From IMG/VR virus record IMGVR_UViG_2517572207_000003: a stretch of 64,000 bases of DNA. One strand, written 5' to 3'. The number at the start of each line of letters is the position of its first letter. Position 1 is the stretch's first letter. The notes under the pieces were generated by a model. The model did not search any database and had not been told where the DNA came from. It worked only from the letters and a program-made list of their open reading frames with translations. A program made the position numbers and the translations under genes. Positions 19,334 to 61,352 of the stretch are shown here, one piece after another. The DNA comes from a virus (taxonomy: Duplodnaviria; Caudoviricetes).

Positions 19334-19361
19334 ATTAAACTATCCTGCCCGTTAGCTTAAT
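19334..19361 (-). repeat. palindromic cassette-boundary site 10
   Basis: ATTAAACTATC-CTGCCC-GTTAGCTTAAT. Confidence 0.8.
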
Positions 19362-19449
19362 GAGGCATCGTCAGAATATTACTTTATTTTTCAGTTTAGA
19401 ACTTTATTTTCTTCTGACACCTATAATAAAGACCGCAAAGGCTTAAGCC

Positions 19450-19670
19450 CTTTGCTTCTGGCATTCTAAGTCCAATTTCTCCTTCTTGGTTTCGCCCCCG
19501 ACCATAGTCGATCATCACAAAATCCAATGTTCGGTTGACAGACTTTTTGCTAAATTTTCTTTGACCTTGCGTCTTTTGTCAGCGAATGTTGTGGCTGATA
19601 TACCATGAATACCTTTTTTATACTCTGCTCATATACTGTTGAGCTTTTAGATACAAAAGCTTTGCAGCAA
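19450..19670 (-). pseudogene. 3' remnant of a late transcription regulator homologous to 60720..61352
   Basis: ATTFADKRR...NRTLDFV.IDYGRG.N.EGEIGLRMPE shared. Confidence 0.75.
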
Positions 19671-20482
19671 GCCTTTCATGCACATCTCTAATGTTAGAGA
19701 TTGCAAAACGGATATTGTTTGTAATGAGGAAATAGAACTTGTAATGAGCTGTTACTCTTTAGAGCTATCCACATCCAGAATGCCACCCAAGGGTGAGCCA
19801 TCATCCAATCAGCTTATGGTCATGAGCGGCCACGCTCCACGGAATCGCTTATACTCTTCTGTTCTTTTAGGCTGTAATAGCTGAGCTCATGTTCAGGTTG
19901 CACACACTTTGACCTTTTATTGTCGTGGTAACCGTAGACCTTCAACAGACTTCTTGAGCCTGGCTATCTCGTTATCCTTTTGTTGCATAAGGGTTTCAAC
20001 GGCGATTAAATCATCGTTCTAGCCCTTAGCCACCTGTTGAAATCTCTATACCCCCTTTCTATATCTAGCTGCTGTGGTGGGTCTGGATCAATCCTTCCAC
20101 TATTGAATGGTTGTTGCTCCACATCTCATTTATATGTTTTTCCACACTCATCCGCCGTCTCGGCTCCATCCACTCTTTGCAGCATCAAATGGCATTTTAC
20201 AGTCATATACAATTAAAAATCCCTTTCCGCATTACTGTAAGTACACTGTCCGAATGCGTACATGCCTCTTCTTTCATCCGTAGGAGTATTTTTAAAATCG
20301 AAATCAACATTTTCAGTGAGGAAGAAACCTCTACATCTGGCATCATTACAACGATGCTTCGACAGACATTGTATAAGGCTGTTTTCTCTTTCTTTACTCC
20401 CTATGAGCTAAAATATGATATATCCTTACTGCCCTCAACAATGAATATGTTCTGCATAAACTATCAAAAAGGAGATGAGAAC

Positions 20483-20600
20483 ATGACTAGATTGTTAGAT
20501 GCTCGAACATCTCAAAACGCAAGTTACGGTAATACGATCTCAATTCCCTTGCCAGCCAATACTGCTGGTGCCATCGCGGAGCTTGGTTTAGATGTAACGG
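20483..20600 (+). pseudogene. 5' fragment of a spore-surface-like protein (MTRLLDARTSQNAS...)
   Basis: RBS AAGGAG; reading becomes unconvincing after ~40 aa. Confidence 0.35.
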
Positions 20601-20909
20601 AATGCCCTTTACTCTGTGAGTGTCTCCGAAACAAACCCAAACGCTGTACAAGTCGTCACCATCAATGCTTCTGATTACAATATCCCTCTACCACCATCAA
20701 ATGAATTGGTATATACCTTATATATATTTTGCACAGCAGATGCTACCCGAATAGGAATAGAAAGTTTTAATGCTGTTGCCTACTCGGATTAAAATTCACC
20801 GTAACACGGAGAACAAAGCCCTCTTATTTTTGTTTCATCTGCTCTTGGAGACAATAATTTCTATCTGTCGTTCATTTTTTGGTATAATTTACTTAAAGGG
20901 GGTGATCAA

Positions 20910-21131
20910 ATGGGAATTATGCTTATTCTTATTGCTATTGTTTTTTTCGCGCTTGGTATTTTAAGTAAACGGAAACCCACTTGGGGATGGCGTGCAAACG
21001 AAGCCTGGAAAATCAAAGGTGACTCAGAACCAAGCGACGCTTACATTGATGACATGAAATTTAGGGGCTCTGTATCTATTCTCTTTGGGTTCTTCTTCTT
21101 AGCATGTGGACTTTTGGTTATCTTCCTGTAA
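20910..21131 (+). CDS. DUF6199-like small 2-TM protein
   Basis: P..GW..NEAWK..GDSEPSDAY motif. Confidence 0.7.
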   Translation: MGIMLILIAIVFFALGILSKRKPTWGWRANEAWKIKGDSEPSDAYIDDMKFRGSVSILFGFFFLACGLLVIFL

Positions 21132-21549
21132 GCGCACTTCCTTAAACTTCAAAGCTCGACCAGCGAATGTAGTAGTAGTTCCATAACTAGCTTTATAGAT
21201 TTCATACTTTTCTTTTTTTGTTTCTAAACACTTCTTCGCGCCCTGCTGGCGTTTGTATTCTTTCCAGTCTACTTCATGAAACCAAAAGTATTTTCCGTAG
21301 CTATCCCTATAGGTCTCTATACAGAATTGAAGAAGTTCCTTCATTGATTTGTATGTATCTGCTCATGGCATGGATCGAACATGCCAAGGCATTTATCTTT
21401 ACACCGTGTCCGCTTCTAACTATTTAAAACCTAATTCAATAATTTTTTGTGGGGAAATTGTGGGGAGTACTGCGTAGTCCAAGAAAATGAAGCATTATCC
21501 TCAAACAAAAAAATCCCTCAACGCTTAGAGCGCCAAGGGATTCCACATT

Positions 21550-21602
21550 TTAGTAAAGCGTCAGATATTGATCACGTTCCCATTGATGTACTTGGGTTCT
21601 GT
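21550..21602 (-). other. glnA: prophage att core: duplicated 3' end of glutamine synthetase gene
   Basis: minus strand reads RTQVHQWERDQYLTLY*, matching the GlnA C-terminus; flanked by GGGGGAC x3 (21708-21737) and TGTGGGGA x2 (~21448-21467) arm-like repeats. Confidence 0.8.
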
Positions 21603-22035
21603 TTATGTACGAATTTATCACTTCATCTTTTCCTTTATTAGGATAGCGATTTATAGAACATTTCATCAGAAACGTTGTTCACAATCTATCATAACTTTTC
21701 ATGAATTGGGGGACGTTTGGGGGACACTTAGGGGGACGATTTTAAGACCAATGTAGGGCAGATGGGAATGAACCATTCTACCCCGTTTTACATACTACTT
21801 TACGAAAGTGAATTCATGAATCCATGAAGGAGCTTCTACTATTACAACGACCGGCAGAGTAGTCCCAAATACCTGAAGCATAGATAAGGTATAAATTTCA
21901 GCATTCTCTTTTTTAATGTCCCATTTAATCTTTAATCTGTGTATTTGCATTGATGCACGTCCTTTGTCGTATTTACTGGAGTGCCTCTCAGTGATATAAT
22001 TTGCAACGAATAGATGTCTACTGGAGGATCTCTGA

Positions 22036-22248
22036 TTGAAAATCTCCCGTGGGAGATGCCGACTTAAGGAGCTACTCGAAGAACGTCGTATAAAACAAAT
22101 CGATCTTGCTAGACGCACCGGCTACAGCAGACATTTGATTTCTAATTGGGCCAACAATCAGGATAAAATGTCTGCTGATGTTATGATTAACATAGCTTAT
22201 GCCCTCGATTGTAAAATGGAAGACTTATACGAACTGATCTTTGAGTGA
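22036..22248 (+). CDS. Cro/C1-type HTH regulator
   Basis: RLKELLEERRIKQIDLARRTG...IAYALDCKMEDLYE. Confidence 0.85.
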   Translation: MKISRGRCRLKELLEERRIKQIDLARRTGYSRHLISNWANNQDKMSADVMINIAYALDCKMEDLYELIFE

Positions 22249-22475
22249 GCCTGTTGGCTCTCCCTCGGATAAAAGTATGGTTGAACCATACTTTTTACAG
22301 ACAACTGTACTCCCCTCCCTTTTTTATTTTCCAAGTCAATTATGTCTATAATCGAACATATCAATTTTTGACATAACTATACTACTATTAAATCCCATTA
22401 TTAGGGGCTTGGCAACAAAAATTCGGGCGCTGAATGTCTCTTAATATTCGACATTATAAGACAAAAAAAGAGTCG

Positions 22476-22871
22476 CTATTTTGTAGCAACTCCAGTGAAG
22501 ATTATTTTCGAATTAATAAAACCCATTTCTTCAACAACCTCATCAAATCGATGGTAAGCAATTGGACACCTTTTCGATGTTTTTGTTACTTCATCTTCAA
22601 AGTAAGCATCTTTAAAGATACCATTAACAATCTTTACTTTTTCTACATTAAGAGTGTTGCTTCTATCCACATTTAAAAAACGATATCCGTTACTATTCAA
22701 AAAATTCTCCCAATGTCTCAAGGTTCCTACCATATAGTATGTTTTATCAAATGTATGAACCAGTATCTGGTCTCGCTTTCTCCCCTTAGAGATGAAAAGG
22801 ACTTTGTCTACTAAAACATTTTCTCCTCTTTCTATACCTCCAGGATCTGCCGATACGGTTAAACTTAGCAT
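22476..22871 (-). CDS. stand-alone LytTR DNA-binding protein
   Basis: GTL...F..VDRSNTLNVEKV LytTR pattern; no receiver domain. Confidence 0.75.
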   Translation of the reverse strand: MLSLTVSADPGGIERGENVLVDKVLFISKGRKRDQILVHTFDKTYYMVGTLRHWENFLNSNGYRFLNVDRSNTLNVEKVKIVNGIFKDAYFEDEVTKTSKRCPIAYHRFDEVVEEMGFINSKIIFTGVATK

Positions 22872-22885
22872 TTAACATTCCCCGC

Positions 22886-23032
22886 TTACTTTAACAATTC
22901 TTTCGGTGGTTCGGGACTGTGAATCCATGACAGACTTGCCGTGCTCACTGATGCAACTGCAAGTATTGTCAACATTGCAGCAATATTGTAATACATACTA
23001 GCCTTCACTTTACTCGGTTTGGTTTTCTTCAT
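22886..23032 (-). CDS. agrD: AgrD-like cyclic lactone autoinducer precursor (48 aa)
   Basis: MKKTKPSKVKASMYYNIAAMLTILAVASVSTASLSWIHSPEPPKELLK; RBS GGAGGTG; follows agrB. Confidence 0.85.
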   Translation of the reverse strand: MKKTKPSKVKASMYYNIAAMLTILAVASVSTASLSWIHSPEPPKELLK

Positions 23033-23564
23033 TTTTCACACCTCCTTCTATTAGTGTTAAACTCTGAACAAAAAAACTGGCAGCTACCACTGGAAAAGCC
23101 AACCACAGATTTAGAGCAACAATTGCAACTCCCATAAACTTTAGCAACGGATAGTGCTTCTTTGATATACGCGTCTTCCCCTCCACCCTCGATGGCGCGT
23201 AAATCAAGATAAGCACAATACTTATTATCGACGTAATAACGATCCAATTGTAATTAAAACTTGCGAAAGATAAAGCAGTAAGTAGAACTGTAGATACAAC
23301 AATACACACTATATTGCTCTTTAAATGTATTCCTCCTACAATTTGGCGCAACATTGAAAAAGATATCATAGCTAGCAAAGCTTCCTGCATTCTGTCCGTA
23401 AAAAATGAGATACCTATAGTCAGTAAAATAATTGAGACTGTATTGATCGCAACGGATATCCCGTGTTTTAGAACATCTATAGATGAAGGATGATCAGGGA
23501 CAACTGTTTTGATGTGAGTCGCAATATTAAGAGCGATGGTGTCAAGGCTTTTTATAGTAATCAC
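23010..23564 (-). CDS. agrB: AgrB-family peptide-processing membrane protein
   Basis: LRQIVGGIHLKS..C catalytic H/C motif; YAPS. Confidence 0.88.
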   Translation of the reverse strand: MITIKSLDTIALNIATHIKTVVPDHPSSIDVLKHGISVAINTVSIILLTIGISFFTDRMQEALLAMISFSMLRQIVGGIHLKSNIVCIVVSTVLLTALSFASFNYNWIVITSIISIVLILIYAPSRVEGKTRISKKHYPLLKFMGVAIVALNLWLAFPVVAASFFVQSLTLIEGGVKNEENQTE

Positions 23565-24174
23565 GCTCCGTTTTTAATGCATAATATAAAAACATGGCAG
23601 ATGCTAAGGCAATAAATAGAATACTCAAGAAGAAATTATTGACGTAAAACATAAATGCACAAGCTGCCAATACTCCTATTATTAAGATAATAACGAGTAC
23701 ATACTCCCACTTAAAACGTAGATTTTCATAATCTGCCGTAAAGCCTATTTTAAATTTATACAGGAACCACGAAATAGCTAACACCCATGCACTAGTTACC
23801 GCTTGCGCTAACGATCCTTCTGCTGAGGTCTGCATTTCTGTTGTCAAGGTACCAAAAAGCATTAATATAACCGCCGCTTGGAATAATGTGTACAAAAAAG
23901 TGCCTGTAATGGATATGATGGCTGCCCAAATAATCGGCATCCTAACAACAGTGGTTATTAATAACGTGAACAATATAATGTTTATGGTTGGAGCAAAGAA
24001 AGATAAAGATGTCTCTTCTCTCAAGATAAAGCTCTGCAAATTCATTATCAATCCAATAAACAATGCAGGCCATATATAGTCTAAGGCTCTAACTCTAAAA
24101 ATAGTTAACATTAAAACAAACGCCGCAAATGTTTCTACAGTCGAGAAAAGCAAGAACCGTACAGGCTCCCACAT
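23542..24174 (-). CDS. multi-pass membrane protein resembling the AgrC sensor domain, lacking a kinase domain
   Basis: ~6-7 TM, 210 aa, first gene of the agrB operon. Confidence 0.7.
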   Translation of the reverse strand: MWEPVRFLLFSTVETFAAFVLMLTIFRVRALDYIWPALFIGLIMNLQSFILREETSLSFFAPTINIILFTLLITTVVRMPIIWAAIISITGTFLYTLFQAAVILMLFGTLTTEMQTSAEGSLAQAVTSAWVLAISWFLYKFKIGFTADYENLRFKWEYVLVIILIIGVLAACAFMFYVNNFFLSILFIALASAMFLYYALKTERDYYKKP

Positions 24175-24298
24175 AACACATAACCCCTTCTCATAATTGG
24201 TAACAAATATGCTTTAATTCTATATTTGTTACTTGTTAGAGGCAATCCAATTACCATGTTAAATGGAAGTATTTATGTATTATGTGAGGTAATTATTT

Positions 24299-24631
24299 TC
24301 AGCCTGCCGATATAATATCCTCAAGCCTAATCCAACTAAAGTCATCTTCCCCACGAAACAGTTTTACTTCGCGTCTAGCGGTGTTAATTGACGTTACTAC
24401 ACCAGTCATGTCCGTATCGTCAAACGGGCTAAATACGGTCACGCTGACAGGCTGGCGTGAGTTGTAAGAGTCTATTAAAGCCTGCTCAATCAATTGTACT
24501 TCCTGGTCATCCAATTCTGGTTTACCGCGCCGTTGACGGTCTTTCATAAGTTTTAAGTATCCTTCTTTATGTTCGGGCAAAATGATGCGTGAACTCTCCC
24601 ATAAACCATTACCCTCAAGTCTCTTTCCCAT
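24299..24631 (-). CDS. YolD-like protein
   Basis: WESSRIILPEH, KPELDDQE, TGVV..I motifs. Confidence 0.85.
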   Translation of the reverse strand: MGKRLEGNGLWESSRIILPEHKEGYLKLMKDRQRRGKPELDDQEVQLIEQALIDSYNSRQPVSVTVFSPFDDTDMTGVVTSINTARREVKLFRGEDDFSWIRLEDIISAG

Positions 24632-25275: not shown

Positions 25276-25692
25276 TTACTTTGCAGTAGGGTAATCTTTA
25301 ACACCTAGTCTTTCCTTAAGCGCGTGCTGTAACACCTGTGAAAAGTTAATTTTCTCACGAGTAGCTTCCCGCTCAAGCCAGCGTGGAAGTGTGACATTTT
25401 TGGTCACTGCTTTGTTCATCATTTCGTCCCTGATCGTCCCCATCCTTATCTCGATCAAAGTGATGAAAGAATCGGGTGGCAATTGAATGCTCGCTGGATC
25501 AGAAGCTGGCGGAATCACTTCGTTGTCCTCTTCAAGGCCAAACAATTGCAGCTCTAAGCACTCCTTCGCCATTCGCAAAGCCTCAGACATATCATCGCCT
25601 TCTGTTATCGCTCCAGGAAGATCCGGAAAAGTGACTGTGTAACCTTTCACTTCACCCTTTTCAAATATTGCAGGGTAAATGTATTTATCCAT
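25276..25692 (-). CDS. hicB: HicB antitoxin
   Basis: YPAIF...YTVTFPDLPGAITEGD; C-terminal KNVTLP...INFSQVLQ. Confidence 0.92.
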   Translation of the reverse strand: MDKYIYPAIFEKGEVKGYTVTFPDLPGAITEGDDMSEALRMAKECLELQLFGLEEDNEVIPPASDPASIQLPPDSFITLIEIRMGTIRDEMMNKAVTKNVTLPRWLEREATREKINFSQVLQHALKERLGVKDYPTAK

Positions 25693-25718
25693 ATATATGA
25701 ACCTCCTTTTGAGGGGGG

Positions 25719-25907
25719 CTATTTAAGCCCCGCCTGTTTGAGTATTGTGTCTGCTGTTTTGGGGTCAAGGTCTTTTCTTGGATGCGGTACTGTGACGAGA
25801 CCCGACTTAGTAGGATGTTTGAATTGATGATGACTCCCTCTAACCCTAGCTAAGTACCACCCATCTGCTTCGATTATCTTTATCATGCTACGTGATGAGT
25901 AGTTCAA
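25719..25907 (-). CDS. hicA: HicA toxin
   Basis: GW...RGSHHQFKHP...VTVPHP.KDL; inverted repeat operator at 25941-25984. Confidence 0.92.
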   Translation of the reverse strand: MNYSSRSMIKIIEADGWYLARVRGSHHQFKHPTKSGLVTVPHPRKDLDPKTADTILKQAGLK

Positions 25908-26095: not shown

Positions 26096-26965
26096 GTGGT
26101 CTATTTGTTTATTTCTCCAATGTTACTTGAAACAGCGGCTGCCCCCTTTTCGGATTCGCGCTATATCTTCGAACCGAAAATAGACGGCCACCGCTTAATA
26201 TATTCGCAACAGAACGGCATTGTACGCTTATTCACGCGCCATAACAATGACTGCACACGCCAATACCCGGAGATAGCTAGCGTTACATTCCCGCATGACA
26301 TTGTGTTGGACGGTGAGATTGCGTGCGTTGATCCGACAACGGGTGTATCGGATTTTGAATCCGTTATGTCCCGCTTCCAGGCGAGGAAAACGGACAAGAT
26401 TACTAAGCTCGTAGCTGAATTACCGGCTACTTTCGTTGTCTTCGATGTCTTGAGCTTTAAAGGCGAGGACTTGCGGAGCCTTCCGCTTATGGAACGCAAG
26501 TCCATACTCGCTAGTCTAACGCTTCCTAGCCCTAGTTTCGGGGTTGTTCCGTATATTGAAGGCGCCGGGGAGGCGTTGTTCGAGCAGATAGAAGCGCGCG
26601 GCATGGAAGGCCTGGTCGCCAAGCGTAAGGATAGTATGTATATCAGCCGCCGATCAGCGTCCTGGCAGAAGGTCATTAACTGGTCCTATGCCGATGTGTA
26701 CATTACGGGTTATCGTAAAGAGGAATTCGGATGGCTTGTATCAGTGCCTAATGAGCGCGGTAACCTTCGTCCCGCCGGCATTATTGAGCACGGAGCTAGC
26801 CCAATGCACAAGAAGGCGTTCTATGGCGTCGTGGCACCGTTAAAGACCGATGAGGATCGCGAATTTGTTTACGTGGAGCCGCGCATAAGAGCCCGTGTTA
26901 AAATGCGAAACTGGACTAAGGCGGGTAACTTGCGGATACCAGTATTTACGGAATTTATAGTTTAA
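26096..26965 (+). CDS. ATP-dependent DNA ligase (LigD ligase-like)
   Basis: EPKIDGHR (motif I), LDGEI, FDVL, EGLVAKRKDS.Y...RS..WQK. Confidence 0.9.
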   Translation: MVYLFISPMLLETAAAPFSDSRYIFEPKIDGHRLIYSQQNGIVRLFTRHNNDCTRQYPEIASVTFPHDIVLDGEIACVDPTTGVSDFESVMSRFQARKTDKITKLVAELPATFVVFDVLSFKGEDLRSLPLMERKSILASLTLPSPSFGVVPYIEGAGEALFEQIEARGMEGLVAKRKDSMYISRRSASWQKVINWSYADVYITGYRKEEFGWLVSVPNERGNLRPAGIIEHGASPMHKKAFYGVVAPLKTDEDREFVYVEPRIRARVKMRNWTKAGNLRIPVFTEFIV

Positions 26966-27477: not shown

Positions 27478-27957
27478 TCAACGATCAAAATCCCTCTTAA
27501 TATTCAAGCTATAACCAAGTCCTTTACCGTTACCACCCCAAGCCCCATCATGACCTATGACTTTAAAATAGATCACATCCCCAGGGAGCAGGCCACTAGT
27601 GCCACAGACATCATTCTTCCCTTGTCCATTGTCTTGAGCTTCAAGCACCTCTTCTTCACCTTTATCAGGATAGTAAGCAACTATATCATAATTGATATAT
27701 TGTTGACTTTTTAAAGTGGCAATTGCCGTCATTTCTTTGCTTCTCGAAGTATTTACTACTTTAAACCAATCTACATCATTTTTGTCCAGATATGATCCAA
27801 AATTAAAGTTACTACTTTGTACATTTAAGGCTGTTTCTCTAGTGTCATTCTGACCAGATATTGCGAAAGCACTTTGCGACAATGTCAATGTCAATGTCGC
27901 AGCAAAAAGGACTGATAATACCTTTCTTATTTTCATGTTTATTCCACCTTTCGTCAT
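27478..27957 (-). CDS. secreted protein with pre-peptidase C-terminal (PPC)-like beta domain
   Basis: signal peptide; NDTRETA, DVDWFKV, YSL motifs. Confidence 0.7.
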   Translation of the reverse strand: MTKGGINMKIRKVLSVLFAATLTLTLSQSAFAISGQNDTRETALNVQSSNFNFGSYLDKNDVDWFKVVNTSRSKEMTAIATLKSQQYINYDIVAYYPDKGEEEVLEAQDNGQGKNDVCGTSGLLPGDVIYFKVIGHDGAWGGNGKGLGYSLNIKRDFDR

Positions 27958-28058
27958 TATAAAGAATCAGCCGATTCGATTCTATTTTATTACATATCAT
28001 ATTAAGATTTGAGACGCGCTTGATTTACAATTATTGATATTTTGTAGATTATTTATTA

Positions 28059-28769
28059 TTATTTGCTTCCCATTTTTAGTCTATAAACTGCATCAAAATC
28101 TGACGGTCTCCATTCATAATTAACATTCCCTTCTTTCCAGGTTGTATGAAGTATGAGTTTTCTTTCCTGGCCAGAGGCATTTTGCTTATAACCAACAATA
28201 ACTAGAGCATGTCCGCCTTCTATTGATCTTCTATCATCTTGGTATCTTTTCATTGTTAGCCAAAGAGGTCTACCTGCATTAATTTCCTCTGTTATCAGAT
28301 TCCAAGCTTTTTCTTGTGCAGAGTTTGTGGCAAAACCATAGCCCCCAAATGAATATATGTACCCTACATCATCTAAATATCTAGCAAAGGCATTTACTGC
28401 TCGTACGAAGGGCACGCCGCCATCTTTGTCAGGATGGAAATATTTATCTGCCAAAATATCTTGTAGTTCATCATCTGATACGCCACGGTCAATTAATAAT
28501 GGATATCCATGACTCTCCCAATACTTGATAATCATAGCTGCCGATGATATGGTACATCCTCTTCCCCAATCGAAGTCGGGCACGTCTGAAATTCTTTTCA
28601 GTCCAATAATACTTGGGGTAATAACTTGAGTAATATCTGGAGTAGTAGATTGAGTGGAATAAGTAGAGTCCGTAACAGTGGTTACCTGATCAGCAAAGGC
28701 AGCGTTTTCAGGAAGTAAACCTACAACAACAGAACCAAGCAAAGCGGGAATCATAATTTTTTTAAGCAT
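28059..28769 (-). CDS. secreted C39-like cysteine peptidase
   Basis: signal peptide from MLKK; GCTISSAAMIIKYW, EINAGRP, GHALVIVGY. Confidence 0.8.
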   Translation of the reverse strand: MLKKIMIPALLGSVVVGLLPENAAFADQVTTVTDSTYSTQSTTPDITQVITPSIIGLKRISDVPDFDWGRGCTISSAAMIIKYWESHGYPLLIDRGVSDDELQDILADKYFHPDKDGGVPFVRAVNAFARYLDDVGYIYSFGGYGFATNSAQEKAWNLITEEINAGRPLWLTMKRYQDDRRSIEGGHALVIVGYKQNASGQERKLILHTTWKEGNVNYEWRPSDFDAVYRLKMGSK

Positions 28770-28943
28770 TTTGATCCTCCATTTTTTTGGTATTATATTC
28801 AATACATTTCCATAATATAGAACATTTCGCGATTCAACTGTGATTGATTTCACACAACACTATAATCTATTTACATCTAACCTAAATTCAAACTGATCAA
28901 TGAAAAAAGCTCTGCCAACCAATCAAGGTTAGCTGAGCTTTTG

Positions 28944-32124: not shown

Positions 32125-32685
32125 TTACTCCGTAGTTACAGGCATTTGAACAGCTTCTAACGGCGCTGAAATAGGTCCAGGTTCAGATTGCACCTGAGCA
32201 GGAACAGTATTGGCTACCTCTGCTGTAGCTTGAGCCAAAAAATCATTAAGCTTTGCAGCCAGACCAGATACAGCTTCCTTAGCTGCGGCCTGTGCTGCCT
32301 TCTCGTTCGGCTGTGCTTCAGTAGCCAGTATCGCTTTTGTTCTGGCCTTATACTCCAGATATGCTTTCTCAATCGCTGCTTGAAGCTCCGTAGGCGATAC
32401 CACAATGCCCTGTTCTGTAAGTCTCAAGGATGCATATTGCAAAGCCTCTTGCATCTTGCGAATCCCGCCAGCATCTTTAAACGTAGTCTGAGCAAGTGCA
32501 AAAGCCTCCCCTGCTACTTTATGGATTACCTCTCGCTGTGCCGCTGTTGTACGTGCGTCTAACCACACGTTAACCTTAGTCTTGAGTTTGTTCAGACCTC
32601 CTAAAACAAACGCTGTAAGCACACCCGCAGTGGCTGTGACAATGGTATTTACGTAAGGTTGTACAGTTTCGATAATTGTTTGCAT
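32125..32685 (-). CDS. LL-H family holin-like protein
   Basis: N-terminal TM; K...A...A...L...GI...ELQAAIEKAY. Confidence 0.75.
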   Translation of the reverse strand: MQTIIETVQPYVNTIVTATAGVLTAFVLGGLNKLKTKVNVWLDARTTAAQREVIHKVAGEAFALAQTTFKDAGGIRKMQEALQYASLRLTEQGIVVSPTELQAAIEKAYLEYKARTKAILATEAQPNEKAAQAAAKEAVSGLAAKLNDFLAQATAEVANTVPAQVQSEPGPISAPLEAVQMPVTTE

Positions 32686-32687
32686 GA

Positions 32688-33461
32688 TTATTTATCCCCT
32701 TTCGTTTCAAAAATCCCTGCTCGATCAAGCATCGTGACCATGCGGTAAAAGTCATAAGATCCATCATTAGCTGTATCTAGAACACCTACGGCCTTGGCGT
32801 TGATGCAGGCTTGTTCAGCCCACGTGGGTACTTTGGGCTGTTTGGCCGCTGTCTCCAGTGTCTTGATGCGGTCAGCCTGCGCCTGCACTGTTTTTTGTAG
32901 TTCCTTCAACGTTGCTTTTTCTTCTAGTGTCATGGGTTCATCATCTCCTGTTTTGTTAATCCTGGATAAAACTGAATCAATCTGTGCCTTCGTAGGCCGC
33001 TTACCTGCTCGATACTGTGCTGTGCTCAGGCCAAATACTATTTGTAGATGCGGCAAGTCGGTGAACGTTTTCCAATCGCCTCCCCACTCAAAGCCCAGCT
33101 CCTTAGCAATAGCCACAACCTGCATCCAGTCCGCTTTATGGTCTGCATTACCATCTCTTTGAGTATCCCAGCTTACAGACCGTCCGTCAGGCAGCAGTAA
33201 GGAAAAATCAATAGCCACACCAAAATTGTGATAGCTGGTCCCGCCTTTGGCGTTTGTTACTTTTGGTCCCGGCTTGGTCCGTCCCTGTGCGTAAAGCTCA
33301 TTTTGCTCCGCTATGGTCCGTAGCCCCTGTGTGATTACGATAGGTATACCTAAAGCAAAGGAACGCTCTATAAGGCACTCCGCGGCTGTGCGGACGACAG
33401 GTAAAAGTCCCTGTAAACGCGTTGCAGATTTACTCTTTACCAACTCCAGTGTTATTGTCAC
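32688..33461 (-). CDS. M15-family endolysin (L-Ala-D-Glu peptidase)
   Basis: ITQGLRTIAEQNELYAQGRT, SYHNFGVAID, EWGGDW, DLPH. Confidence 0.92.
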   Translation of the reverse strand: MTITLELVKSKSATRLQGLLPVVRTAAECLIERSFALGIPIVITQGLRTIAEQNELYAQGRTKPGPKVTNAKGGTSYHNFGVAIDFSLLLPDGRSVSWDTQRDGNADHKADWMQVVAIAKELGFEWGGDWKTFTDLPHLQIVFGLSTAQYRAGKRPTKAQIDSVLSRINKTGDDEPMTLEEKATLKELQKTVQAQADRIKTLETAAKQPKVPTWAEQACINAKAVGVLDTANDGSYDFYRMVTMLDRAGIFETKGDK

Positions 33462-33879
33462 TACCGTTTCCCCCTTTTCCTTTCAATACCTCAACCGCTT
33501 GTCGGATCACTGGTGGAATTGGCGCTCCAAGCCTGCCCCCGTTTTCCAGAATCGAAAGCAGCTCATTTGCCATATAAAAATAGGCGACCGCATCCCGGAA
33601 TAGGTGCGAATCGCCTAAAACTCCATCAATCAGATGGGATACTGCTACCATTGCAAAAATAAATACCTTTCGAGCGATACCGATAAGACCAATCTTACTT
33701 TTCAAACCGGGTCCGGTTCCCTTCTTACCTTCAGCACCAGCAGCAAATAATCCGGTCACATAATCAATAATGACCAGAGCAAGTAACACCCCCAATACTC
33801 CCGACCACCCACCGTAAAAATACGTCACAGCGCTACTTCCTAAAGCAGTGCTGAACTTAAAAACCTCCCACTTATCCAC
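33430..33879 (-). CDS. phage holin (toxin secretion/phage lysis holin family)
   Basis: DYVTG...ANELLSILEN; GTG start. Confidence 0.88.
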   Translation of the reverse strand: MDKWEVFKFSTALGSSAVTYFYGGWSGVLGVLLALVIIDYVTGLFAAGAEGKKGTGPGLKSKIGLIGIARKVFIFAMVAVSHLIDGVLGDSHLFRDAVAYFYMANELLSILENGGRLGAPIPPVIRQAVEVLKGKGGNGSDNNTGVGKE

Positions 33880-33901
33880 CTTGCTTCCCCCGTCTCTCCG
33901 T

Positions 33902-34123
33902 TCAGGAAACTTTTCCTGAGCTATCATCGTCTACTTTCTGTTCCTTTTCTTCCTGGGCCTGTATCTCTGCTAATGCATTTCCTACTGCCATATCCAAACC
34001 TTTAAGTATTTCCTTCCGGCGCGCTGGTTGCGAAGCAATAACAGCAGAAATGACCTCGGTCAATTCTTCAATCGGCCTCGTTAAATCCAATTGTATATCC
34101 AATGCGGATTTTATCTTTGCCAT
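33902..34123 (-). CDS. phage hypothetical protein
   Basis: conserved in two other copies in the window. Confidence 0.8.
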   Translation of the reverse strand: MAKIKSALDIQLDLTRPIEELTEVISAVIASQPARRKEILKGLDMAVGNALAEIQAQEEKEQKVDDDSSGKVS

Positions 34124-60604: not shown

Positions 60605-60632
60605 ATTATACTAACCTGCCCGTTAGCTTTAT
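60605..60632 (-). repeat. palindromic cassette-boundary site 12
   Basis: ATTATACTAAC-CTGCCC-GTTAGCTTTAT. Confidence 0.8.
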
Positions 60633-60719
60633 GAAGCATCGTCAAGACTATTACTTTATTTTCAGTCTAGAACTTTAGACACCTAAAATTAAGACCGCAA
60701 AGGCTTAAGCCCTTACGGT

Positions 60720-61352
60720 CTAATTTACTTCTGGCATCCTCAGTCCAATTTCACCTTCCTTGTTTCGTCCCCGACCATAGTCGATGGTGACAAAATCCAA
60801 TGTACGGTTTGTCTTTAGGCTGTTTGCTATATTAACAATAACCCTACGTCGTTTATCTGCAAATGTAGTCGCTGAGATAGGAGGAATGTCCTTGCGATAA
60901 CCTTTTTCCAAATATTGTTGAGCTTTGAGATATTTCATACCATCCATAAATAACAGCTTTGCTATCAATCCCTCGTGCTTATCACGCATATTGTTTATTG
61001 CAAACTTAATGTTATTCGTAAGAAATTGATAGAATTTGTAATTCACATGGCGCTGGTCTTTGAGCAGAACGGCGTTAGCTGTCACATCTGCTGTCAGTTC
61101 TTGTCCAGAAACTCGCTTGGCAACCGAGCCTTCCGCAGAAAGTAGATCATATGCAGCCATTCCGTTTTCAATCTGCTGAAGAGCAAACTCATAGTTCTTG
61201 ATCACGTCTACCATATCGGTATACTTACCAAGTAGCCATTTTGTTTTACGGATATCTTCTTGTTCTAACTCATCAAAAAAGTTAATTTGAATAATTTTTA
61301 TATTATCTTCCGTTTCTTCTTTTAACAACAATATAGAGTTGGTTGAAGTCAT
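60720..61352 (-). CDS. late transcriptional regulator (ArpU/RinA-like position)
   Basis: last early gene before packaging genes; C-terminal sigma4-like HTH (ISATTF..KRR). Confidence 0.6.
   Translation of the reverse strand: MTSTNSILLLKEETEDNIKIIQINFFDELEQEDIRKTKWLLGKYTDMVDVIKNYEFALQQIENGMAAYDLLSAEGSVAKRVSGQELTADVTANAVLLKDQRHVNYKFYQFLTNNIKFAINNMRDKHEGLIAKLLFMDGMKYLKAQQYLEKGYRKDIPPISATTFADKRRRVIVNIANSLKTNRTLDFVTIDYGRGRNKEGEIGLRMPEVN

Follow-up and report, generated by a model that had tools for sequence, protein, structure and literature searches.

A kinase-less agr-type cassette beside the attachment site of a Paenibacillus prophage and its relatives in the Paenibacillaceae

Introduction

In the canonical agr quorum-sensing locus of Staphylococcus aureus (agrBDCA), a protease/cyclase with a His/Cys pair (AgrB) matures a precursor (AgrD) that combines a hydrophobic leader, a five-residue ring position, a P-x-x-P motif and an acidic tail, and the resulting autoinducing peptide (AIP) is read by a polytopic sensor with DHp and ATPase domains (AgrC) and a regulator that joins a receiver to a LytTR output domain (AgrA). 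Here we describe a four-gene cassette near one end of a Paenibacillus prophage, on a 64,000-nt stretch of DNA (IMG/VR record IMGVR_UViG_2517572207_000003; hereafter the window, whose positions are used throughout unless prefixed with C1 or an L-locus). Like canonical agr, it encodes an AgrB with the His/Cys pair, an AgrD with the leader, ring position, P-x-x-P and acidic tail, a polytopic homologue of the AgrC-type sensor, and a LytTR output protein with the AgrA fold, but its sensor has no DHp or ATPase domain and its LytTR protein no receiver, so that the cassette holds no phosphorelay. It further differs from canonical agr in having Ser at the ring, in its gene order (sensor-B-D-LytTR), in being phage-borne and in lacking convincing direct-repeat LytTR boxes. 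A Ser-lactone AIP reportedly occurs in Staphylococcus intermedius/pseudintermedius, within a canonical kinase-dependent agr locus, and is said to have been described by Ji and colleagues in 2005.

In its proposed role, the cassette resembles arbitrium (AimP/AimR/AimX), in which SPbeta-like phages use a linear hexapeptide that is taken up and bound by a cytoplasmic receptor made of tetratricopeptide repeats (TPR). Both would involve a secreted phage peptide, many dialects and a position near lysogeny genes, whereas the parts are unrelated: the cassette has no TPR protein, and a search for AimR reached only the 70-amino-acid (aa) helix-turn-helix (HTH) gene of the locus, at 27.2 bits against a cut-off of 70 (NF038310, positions 1-60 of 365).

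Among phages, phiCDHM1 carries agrC-agrB-agrD (Hargreaves et al. 2014; PMC3901668), and the same report, where it treats agr genes, names P-x-x-P as an AgrD motif and mentions in passing that phages Davies, Emery and Abouo encode AgrB, a putative AgrD and membrane proteins that are perhaps ATPase-less AgrC homologues (PMC3901668). The agr3 locus of phiCDHM1, a temperate phage of Clostridioides difficile, has agrB, agrD and a sensor gene in common with the cassette, but it encodes a full AgrC kinase (453 aa) and no regulator, whereas the cassette has no kinase and does have a LytTR protein. The agr locus of Paenibacillus polymyxa makes Pp-AIP1/2, peptides with a Cys-containing core (ICFGLF) that their description presents as derivatives of a typical AIP (PMC12180512); this is a different system from the cassette.

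For the LytTR protein, the closest described counterparts are the LytTR regulatory systems HdrRM and BrsRM of Streptococcus mutans, in which, as set out in PMC6193735, a LytTR-only regulator is co-transcribed with a membrane protein and signals without phosphorylation. The cassette likewise places a receiver-less LytTR regulator and a transmembrane protein in one operon. In the LytTR regulatory systems, however, the membrane inhibitor is unrelated to AgrC and, in that account, has no known signal, whereas the cassette combines an AgrC-type sensor with a dedicated peptide and its maturase in the operon; their 9-bp direct repeats, with an 11-13 bp spacer and 4-11 bp upstream of the -35 (PMC6193735), are not evident in this phage. 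BlpS of Streptococcus gallolyticus is also a LytTR-only protein of ~110-130 aa in a peptide quorum-sensing locus, but as described in PMC8545106 it acts against a classical kinase/regulator pair of its own locus, which the cassette does not have. Full-text literature yielded no functional work on the cassette itself, although supplementary tables, which lay outside that search, may list such loci (for example S2-S5 of PMC12180512, with 40,850 AgrB hits); two phage-genomics papers give the AgrB in tables only.

Results and discussion

A stand-alone AgrC-type sensor in a four-gene operon

The operon proper occupies 22476-24174 on the minus strand, with a convergent HTH gene starting at 22036 (Table 1). 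An earlier reading of the DNA made from sequence alone (the sequence-only reading) had proposed a membrane sensor, AgrB, AgrD, a LytTR-only protein and a Cro-like gene here, in a tightly coupled operon; the open reading frame (ORF) list and family scans placed all five where it had put them, and the coupling was equally plain, with an overlap of 23 nt at each of the first two junctions, the second between agrB and agrD, and a 14-nt gap at the third. Promoter-like and terminator-like sites bracket the four genes, which by sequence thus form a single promoter-to-terminator unit.

The membrane protein belongs to no Pfam family (a Pfam scan of 130 members gave scattered sub-threshold matches, at most two members per family), and its PHROGs label is 'membrane protein, moron'. 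Its near-length homologues number 28, all of 193-217 aa and all, where a source is named, from Paenibacillus. A profile of 20 homologues searched against 1.84 billion representatives returned 375 proteins, the best 150 of which were all <=242 aa and included no kinase-fused form; a length of ~205-240 aa is kept across 134 full-length representatives, down to ~20% identity, and the family alignment found no fused forms of >=425 aa, which is weak evidence. When the profile was broadened to 130 sequences, 54 of the 401 Bacillota genomes searched gave matches. The matches in Paenibacillaceae were ORFs of about 195-247 aa, and many of those outside Paenibacillaceae aligned profile positions 1 to ~208 with the N-terminus of 445-474-aa ORFs. 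Six ORFs were scanned, of which four long ones carried SPOB_a, HATPase_c and HATPase_c_5 and two, each next to one of these, were AgrB. Aligned with hhalign, the sensor family matched eight of the long kinases at 97.9% probability (E 5.7e-13) over 186 columns, covering kinase residues 3-192. Taken together, the hhalign match and the N-terminal profile matches identify the membrane protein as homologous to the AgrC-type kinase sensor domain but free-standing; it stops just past its last helix, with no DHp or ATPase domain. The 'membrane sensor' of the sequence-only reading thereby acquires a family, and on this profile evidence its homology with the sensor domain that histidine kinases next to AgrB carry in other Bacillota is new here. 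Evolutionarily, the sensor family descends from kinases, since its distant homologues in other Bacillota are full kinases.

Other profile matches were ~160-aa membrane ORFs (profile 1-146), each with two ORFs behind it, the first for a ~290-aa protein that combines two helices with a kinase-like C-terminus and the second AgrB-like. This arrangement was seen at L059, L060, L063, L065, L068, L070-L072 and L074 (L070 ends before any AgrB is visible, and L067 shows no such kinase or AgrB ORF), and from the ORFs we read the gene pair as a split AgrC. The fused form, of 446 aa, often lies beside rlmH.

Structurally, the membrane protein is modelled with seven helices at a mean predicted local distance difference test score (pLDDT) of 80. 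In a wide VIA fold search, this model reached a best Z of 8.0, in a range common for helical models, and the sensor profile had no matches among PDB sequences; the absence of fold matches for this model says nothing about the novelty of its fold. Entropy in the close sensor family is lowest in the N-terminal helix and the basic loop 141-156 and highest around 100-117, and we predict, from our reading of the topology, a cytoplasmic loop and an outward-facing variable segment 100-117.

The LytTR protein has an AlphaFold model with a pLDDT of 92.4. Its best structure matches are the AgrA LytTR-DNA complexes 4xqn and 3bs1 (probability 1.00, TM 0.84 on target); next come a LytTR domain of Bacillus cereus and ComE. 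With 131 aa, the protein consists of the LytTR domain only and leaves no room for a receiver.

The kinase is absent across related loci

Pattern scans yielded 37 related loci, 20 from named genomes and 17 from IMG/VR viral contigs, which are not independent of one another and fall into 19 clusters at 90% membrane-protein identity. AgrB follows the sensor in all 37 of these Paenibacillus loci; AgrD was found in 36 (34 by tblastn, L024 and L025 by ORF reading), the last locus being cut by a contig end. An intact LytTR-only gene is present in 31 of the 37 loci and 16 of the 19 clusters; the others have it frameshifted (L013), lack it (L008, L014, L015) or are cut by the contig end before reaching it (L034, L042). 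Four further Paenibacillaceae genomes all show sensor, AgrB and LytTR-only genes in the same order (4/4). Adding the two paralogous loci of the window's own genome and two phage records gave 41 loci, and within +/-5-6 kb of none of these did a hidden Markov model (HMM) of the DHp-ATPase region of AgrB-linked kinases find a match, while both positive controls were recovered (2/2). The prophage itself holds none of the 82 HATPase_c, 13 HATPase_c_5 and 80 receiver matches of its genome.

The absence of a kinase, which the sequence-only reading had noted for the operon, thus holds for the operon, for the surroundings of all 41 related loci and for the prophage. That reading had named as a point that would tell against it that homologous operons usually hold a full kinase; this proved right for the distant homologues in other Bacillota and wrong for Paenibacillaceae and their phages, where the kinase-less form is the rule. 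The absence of kinase domains from 41 loci with both controls positive, together with recurrence in 19 clusters and in isolated phages, marks the cassette as a stable kinase-less lineage and not a truncation.

Isolated phages carry the same set. We confirmed the four-gene module in Abouo (gp44-47) and in the Paenibacillus larvae phage Harrison (38-41), beside the integrase in both. In DNA and protein searches of a phage collection, neither the whole region nor the membrane and LytTR proteins gave a match, and only AgrB reached phage records; in the Brevibacillus phages Abouo, Davies and Emery and in Harrison, AgrB is only 27-36% identical to that of the window. Abouo gp44 nevertheless falls within the sensor family (99.4%, E 2.8e-21), and the fourth gene of the Abouo and Harrison modules, annotated as 'peptidase' (PHROG 15081), scores as LytTR at 29.4 and 29.1 bits against a cut-off of 22.6. 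Abouo gp47 is recognised as LytTR by both Pfam and the family HMM, although its hhalign comparison with the LytTR family is weak (probability 5.9%). By these profiles, the 'peptidase' of both phages is a LytTR domain, an assignment that is new here; the LytTR gene of the module is not mentioned in the passages of the 2014 paper that treat these phages (PMC3901668).

The window's genome and its relatives hold further variants. The chromosomal paralogue L005, whose sensor is 47% identical to that of the window and whose AgrD reads ..SVASYVYVYQGDTPEELLK, lies between an acyltransferase gene and rsmD. A third, more distant module (L001, C1:3037109-3039165) consists of a 237-aa sensor-like protein, AgrB, a basic 43-aa peptide (..KTIFGAKPVPAELKK) that lacks a hydrophobic leader, and a 244-aa protein made of two LytTR-like halves, and sits beside an XRE gene and a XerC-like recombinase; at L008:6876-8383, a module of this type forms a tandem with a frameshifted first-type copy that precedes it. 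On one Paenibacillus contig the whole cassette region occurs twice, ~60 kb apart (L006 and L007), with the same tblastn identities to the window's six proteins, which suggests two related prophages or a tandem one.

AgrB, AgrD and the predicted ring peptide

The AgrB motif GG-x-H80-x6-C87 is intact in the window, and GG-x-H-x6-C is present in every tblastn match that spans it; the His and Cys of this motif are the catalytic pair of AgrB. AgrD has an invariant Ser33 at the ring position where agr has Cys, followed by P40-x-x-P43 and a K-E-L tail, and the spacing from ring to tail presumably matches that of canonical AgrD. Across loci, the precursors follow the consensus A-S-[LI]-x-[WFY]-[VI]-x-[NS]-P-[EK]-P-P-x-E-L, and the ring Ser is invariant in all 34 Ser-type precursors. 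The most distant loci, L024 and L025 (sensor 35% identical), carry Cys in the Ser column (..GPCWLFVHQEDLPDELL). Within these data, nothing speaks more strongly for ring closure at Ser33 than this exchange of Ser and Cys at a single column, which also upholds the earlier suggestion that Ser stands in for Cys in this AgrD. A lactone ring of S33-I37 (SLSWI) is accordingly predicted for the window, one of at least 10 different five-residue rings in the family, which include SLAFV, SLAWV, SLFYV, SLIYV and SIAFI. Both distant loci also have a further LytTR-like ORF, ~2 kb upstream of their Cys-type cassette (L024:3079-3417 and L025:3032-3529; family HMM E 2e-6 in L025).

Block-wise divergence behind a conserved promoter

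Three kinds of relative (L040, L035 and L021/L041) have an upstream YolD 87-90% identical to that of the window, and their promoter region is nearly identical in L040 and largely so, with more changes, in L035 and L021. Past the start codon, identity in these loci falls to 54-59% for the sensor, 45-50% for AgrB, 46-57% for AgrD and 40-41% for the LytTR protein, and the HTH protein is 34-43% identical in L040 and L035, where it was matched. The start codon is the recombination edge, with the promoter and the inverted repeat at the -10 (24200-24245) kept ahead of a 40-59% identical cassette. On these alignments, the cassette is swapped as a unit on similar phage backbones, as are agr specificity groups and pherotypes. 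Because the four genes diverge as a block behind a conserved promoter, related phages would hold several mutually private 'dialects'. Co-variation of the LytTR protein fits a sensor-LytTR contact that needs co-adaptation, and fits equally well the import of whole cassettes.

As a direct-repeat candidate for a LytTR box, the window offers only one pair, which agrees at 7/9 positions across an 11-bp spacer and lies ~20 bp upstream from the -35 of the operon. Two related loci (L017 and L018) have an 8/9 pair with a 12-bp spacer, 10-11 bp upstream of a -35; by our estimate, ~0.4 such pairs per region are expected by chance. Kept across dialects and carrying inverted rather than direct repeats, the promoter region suggests that a backbone factor, and not the cassette's own LytTR protein, controls the operon.

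A direct sensor-LytTR circuit and its alternatives

We give about even weight to the reading that this is an agr-derived peptide cassette stripped of both phosphorelay parts and housed among the accessory genes that a temperate Paenibacillus phage carries next to att and its integrase, and that a peptide acts through a kinase-less sensor and direct LytTR control on transcription. Mechanistically, AgrB would cleave the tail of AgrD and close a five-residue lactone (SLSWI here), which would be released. At high lysogen density, the peptide would bind the outward-facing variable part of the seven-helix sensor. The sensor, unable to phosphorylate, would hold or release the LytTR protein by direct contact at the membrane through the conserved basic loop 141-156, a step modelled on the membrane inhibitors of LytTR regulatory systems, and the freed LytTR protein would switch phage or host promoters. 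Direct coupling of sensor and LytTR protein is, like any role in lysogeny, an inference. The sequence-only reading, whose structural part is supported and strengthened by the family evidence, had likewise proposed a phosphorylation-independent circuit, which might control lysis-lysogeny or manipulate the host.

Several observations weigh against this reading. An intact LytTR gene is missing from three of the 19 clusters, and in the chromosomal paralogue L005 (C1:2117574-2118800) no LytTR gene accompanies sensor, AgrB and AgrD; conversely, another prophage end of the genome (C1:3142126-3142913) has an HTH and a LytTR-only gene with no sensor, AgrB or AgrD. The window's repeat pair was set aside as evidence for a LytTR box, as a scan of the prophage with it returned one site, its own source, against 0.55 in shuffles, no better than chance. 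Cassettes with LytTR proteins of only ~41% identity share the operon promoter, and its repeats are inverted, not direct, so that autoregulation by LytTR, a hallmark of agr and of LytTR regulatory systems, is unsupported in this phage. The N-out, C-in topology of the sensor is read from the model and the positive-inside rule, and no solved structure resembles the model (best Foldseek match in PDB, E 0.22). Peptide sensing would in principle also be open to three HPK10-type kinase/LytTR pairs of the host. Finally, the RNA-library data that speak for one transcription unit are assembled contigs only, which by themselves prove neither transcription nor its strand nor a single transcript and may reflect DNA carry-over; gaps in contig cover were given no weight. 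Of the 24 runs listed, 21 are RNA libraries with part of the stretch. In a run of organism B, a 1660-nt contig (22485-24144) covers the operon almost end to end and a separate contig of different depth (22072-22416) lies on the HTH gene; in three further studies, a run of organism A gave a 1002-nt contig (22521-23522) with one difference, and two runs of organism C, from two of these studies, gave contigs 21573-24442 and 21573-24409. Contig ends at gene boundaries are a hint only.

A first alternative, which we consider somewhat unlikely, is that the phage peptide is sensed by a host kinase or blocks a host receptor, with the LytTR-only protein a BlpS-like competitor and the sensor a decoy or sink, so that host quorum sensing is manipulated. 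The three host kinases have HATPase_c_5 domains and each lies beside a regulator with receiver (REC) and LytTR domains; BlpS, a LytTR-only protein of 108 aa, is described as repressing by competition with BlpR (PMC8545106); the authors of the phiCDHM1 study proposed a host relay for its regulator-less phage agr cassette (PMC3901668); and parts of the cassette occur apart in this genome. Yet two of the HPK10 kinases, each compared as a single sequence with the close-family profile in hhalign, show no similarity to the cassette sensor (probability <1%), sensor and LytTR protein diverge with AgrD in the block swaps, which a conserved host receptor would not require, and the four genes travel together across genera and phages.

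It is improbable, in our view, that the cassette is no signalling system at all, its cyclic peptide serving as an antimicrobial or exclusion factor, its membrane protein as an immunity or export partner and its LytTR protein as a local regulator. Such a reading would suit a membrane protein with no Pfam family and only the PHROGs label quoted above, and a neighbourhood of HicAB, ligase and secreted-protein genes in the accessory stretch that separates attL from the lysis genes, but the homology found for the membrane protein is to the sensor domain of kinases and not to a transporter or immunity family, AgrD passes a curated AgrD model, and the pherotype-like block variation is typical of signal-receptor pairs.

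Decidedly improbable, too, is a split receptor, in which the membrane protein would pair with a separately encoded kinase module and phosphorylation would be retained. The ~160-aa and ~290-aa split AgrC of several Bacillota genomes does indicate that the sensor can work as a separate polypeptide. However, no kinase lies within 5-6 kb in the 41 loci or in the prophage, the Paenibacillus protein is complete in its seven helices, even those which in the split kinases belong to the kinase piece, and the LytTR partner has no receiver to take a phosphate. A kinase acting in trans is further weakened because the sensor profile, searched in the host genome, matches only the three kinase-less copies. 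Lastly, that the cassette is a decayed, non-functional remnant of canonical agrBDCA with truncated agrC and agrA is scarcely credible, for although the sensor family descends from full kinases, lengths are constant over the 134 representatives, reading frames are intact, the AgrB catalytic pair is conserved, the set occurs in isolated viable phages and contigs of it appear in RNA libraries.

Prophage context and possible role

The element that carries the cassette is a 56.7-kb prophage at the 3' end of glnA (C1:3201667-3258340). The sequence-only reading had placed the Cro-like HTH gene next to att, and the gene indeed lies 450 bp from attL, a 29-bp exact repeat whose right copy has the integrase beside it (Table 1). 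Besides att repeats, integrase and a repressor, the prophage has lysis genes (holin, endolysin and holin at 32125-33927), then tail, capsid and terminase-sized genes, as expected of an integrated temperate phage. With lysis genes on one side and attL on the other, the cassette lies within the 10-kb accessory stretch between them, which also holds YolD, HicAB, an ATP-dependent ligase and secreted proteins; in the circular phage, this stretch abuts integrase and repressor.

Table 1 Features of the cassette and of the prophage ends (window positions).
Feature	Position	Strand	Description
Membrane protein	24174..23542	-	210 aa, seven helices; sensor-domain homologue of AgrC-type kinases (ORF list, profiles, model)
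AgrB	23564..23010	-	184 aa; PF04647 E 5.9e-19, 68.6 bits vs cut-off 23
AgrD precursor	23032..22886	-	48 aa; end ..STASLSWIHSPEPPKELLK; TIGR04223 E 8.9e-8, 32.1 bits vs cut-off 19
LytTR-only protein	22871..22476	-	131 aa; PF04397 25.5 bits vs cut-off 22.6
Cro/CI-type HTH gene (HTH_26)	22036..22248	+	70 aa; E 8.4e-15; convergent with operon
Operon promoter-like site	24245-24217	-	TTGCCT-17-TAGAAT
Inverted repeat around operon -10	24200..24232		11-nt perfect repeat GTAACAAATAT-N11-ATATTTGTTAC; candidate operator
Terminator-like hairpin and T-run	22493-22469	-	at LytTR gene end
HTH-gene promoter-like site	21972..22000	+	TTTACT-17-TATAAT with TG, 10/12
Perfect 12-nt palindrome	22271..22295		between convergent genes, T-run on both strands; possible two-way terminator
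attL core	21554..21582		29-bp exact direct repeat of 78199-78227
Three GGGGGAC-type 11-nt repeats	21708..21741	+	spacing 11-12 nt; candidate recombinase arm sites
CI-like gene	76441-76830		beside attR
Integrase	76940-78127		beside attR
attR	78199-78227		past window end; final codons of glnA (glnA 78195-79523)

Position beside integrase and att, in the window and in two isolated phages, suits a role linked to lysogeny without showing one. That the cassette acts in the lysis-lysogeny decision, for which this location in three phages is the only basis, is a possibility we hold as tentative and on balance doubtful.

Near the cassette, a HicA/HicB toxin-antitoxin pair and an ATP-dependent DNA ligase are encoded at 25276-25907 and 26096-26965, and 27478-28853 encodes a secreted 159-aa protein and a C39-like peptidase. 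GGGGGAC words also occur near attR (78100-78160), and are likely arm sites for integrase or excisionase. In RNA libraries, contigs that join the left flank straight to glnA indicate that an unoccupied att site exists in related samples. On the host side of attL, stretches within 19334-21373 are 72-87% identical to prophage parts 60605-60932 and 65135-65773; there are few long ORFs, and a second DUF6199 gene lies left of attL (20910-21131, compared with 65053-65400). It looks as if a related phage had once occupied this site and decayed. At the other prophage end mentioned above (integrase at 3144123 on C1), the HTH protein is 44% identical to that of the window, and its gene is convergent with a LytTR-only gene of 109 aa.

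Conclusions

The cassette is conserved and diversified in temperate phages of Paenibacillaceae, as was partly noticed in 2014, and the 'peptidase' annotation of PHROG 15081 in Abouo and Harrison is to be corrected to a LytTR domain. Should direct gating of the LytTR protein by the sensor be borne out, the cassette would provide the first demonstrated case of kinase-free signalling by an agr-type receptor, LytTR regulatory systems would gain a member with a defined peptide ligand in the same operon, and what the membrane partners of LytTR proteins sense and relay, a long-open question, would become directly testable. More broadly, the cassette may be a self-contained, phosphorylation-free, agr-derived means of communication of Paenibacillus and Brevibacillus phages, whose private dialects count their own lysogens and feed into a lysis-lysogeny or superinfection decision, a proposal that we regard as possible rather than probable. 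It offers a candidate for phage peptide communication outside the arbitrium family, with natural dialects and in isolated, culturable phages; if true, it would amount to a second, unrelated invention of arbitrium-like behaviour and to a direct link between agr and LytTR regulatory systems. In plant-associated Paenibacillus, prophage peptides may also cross-talk with antibiotic production that is under the control of the host agr.

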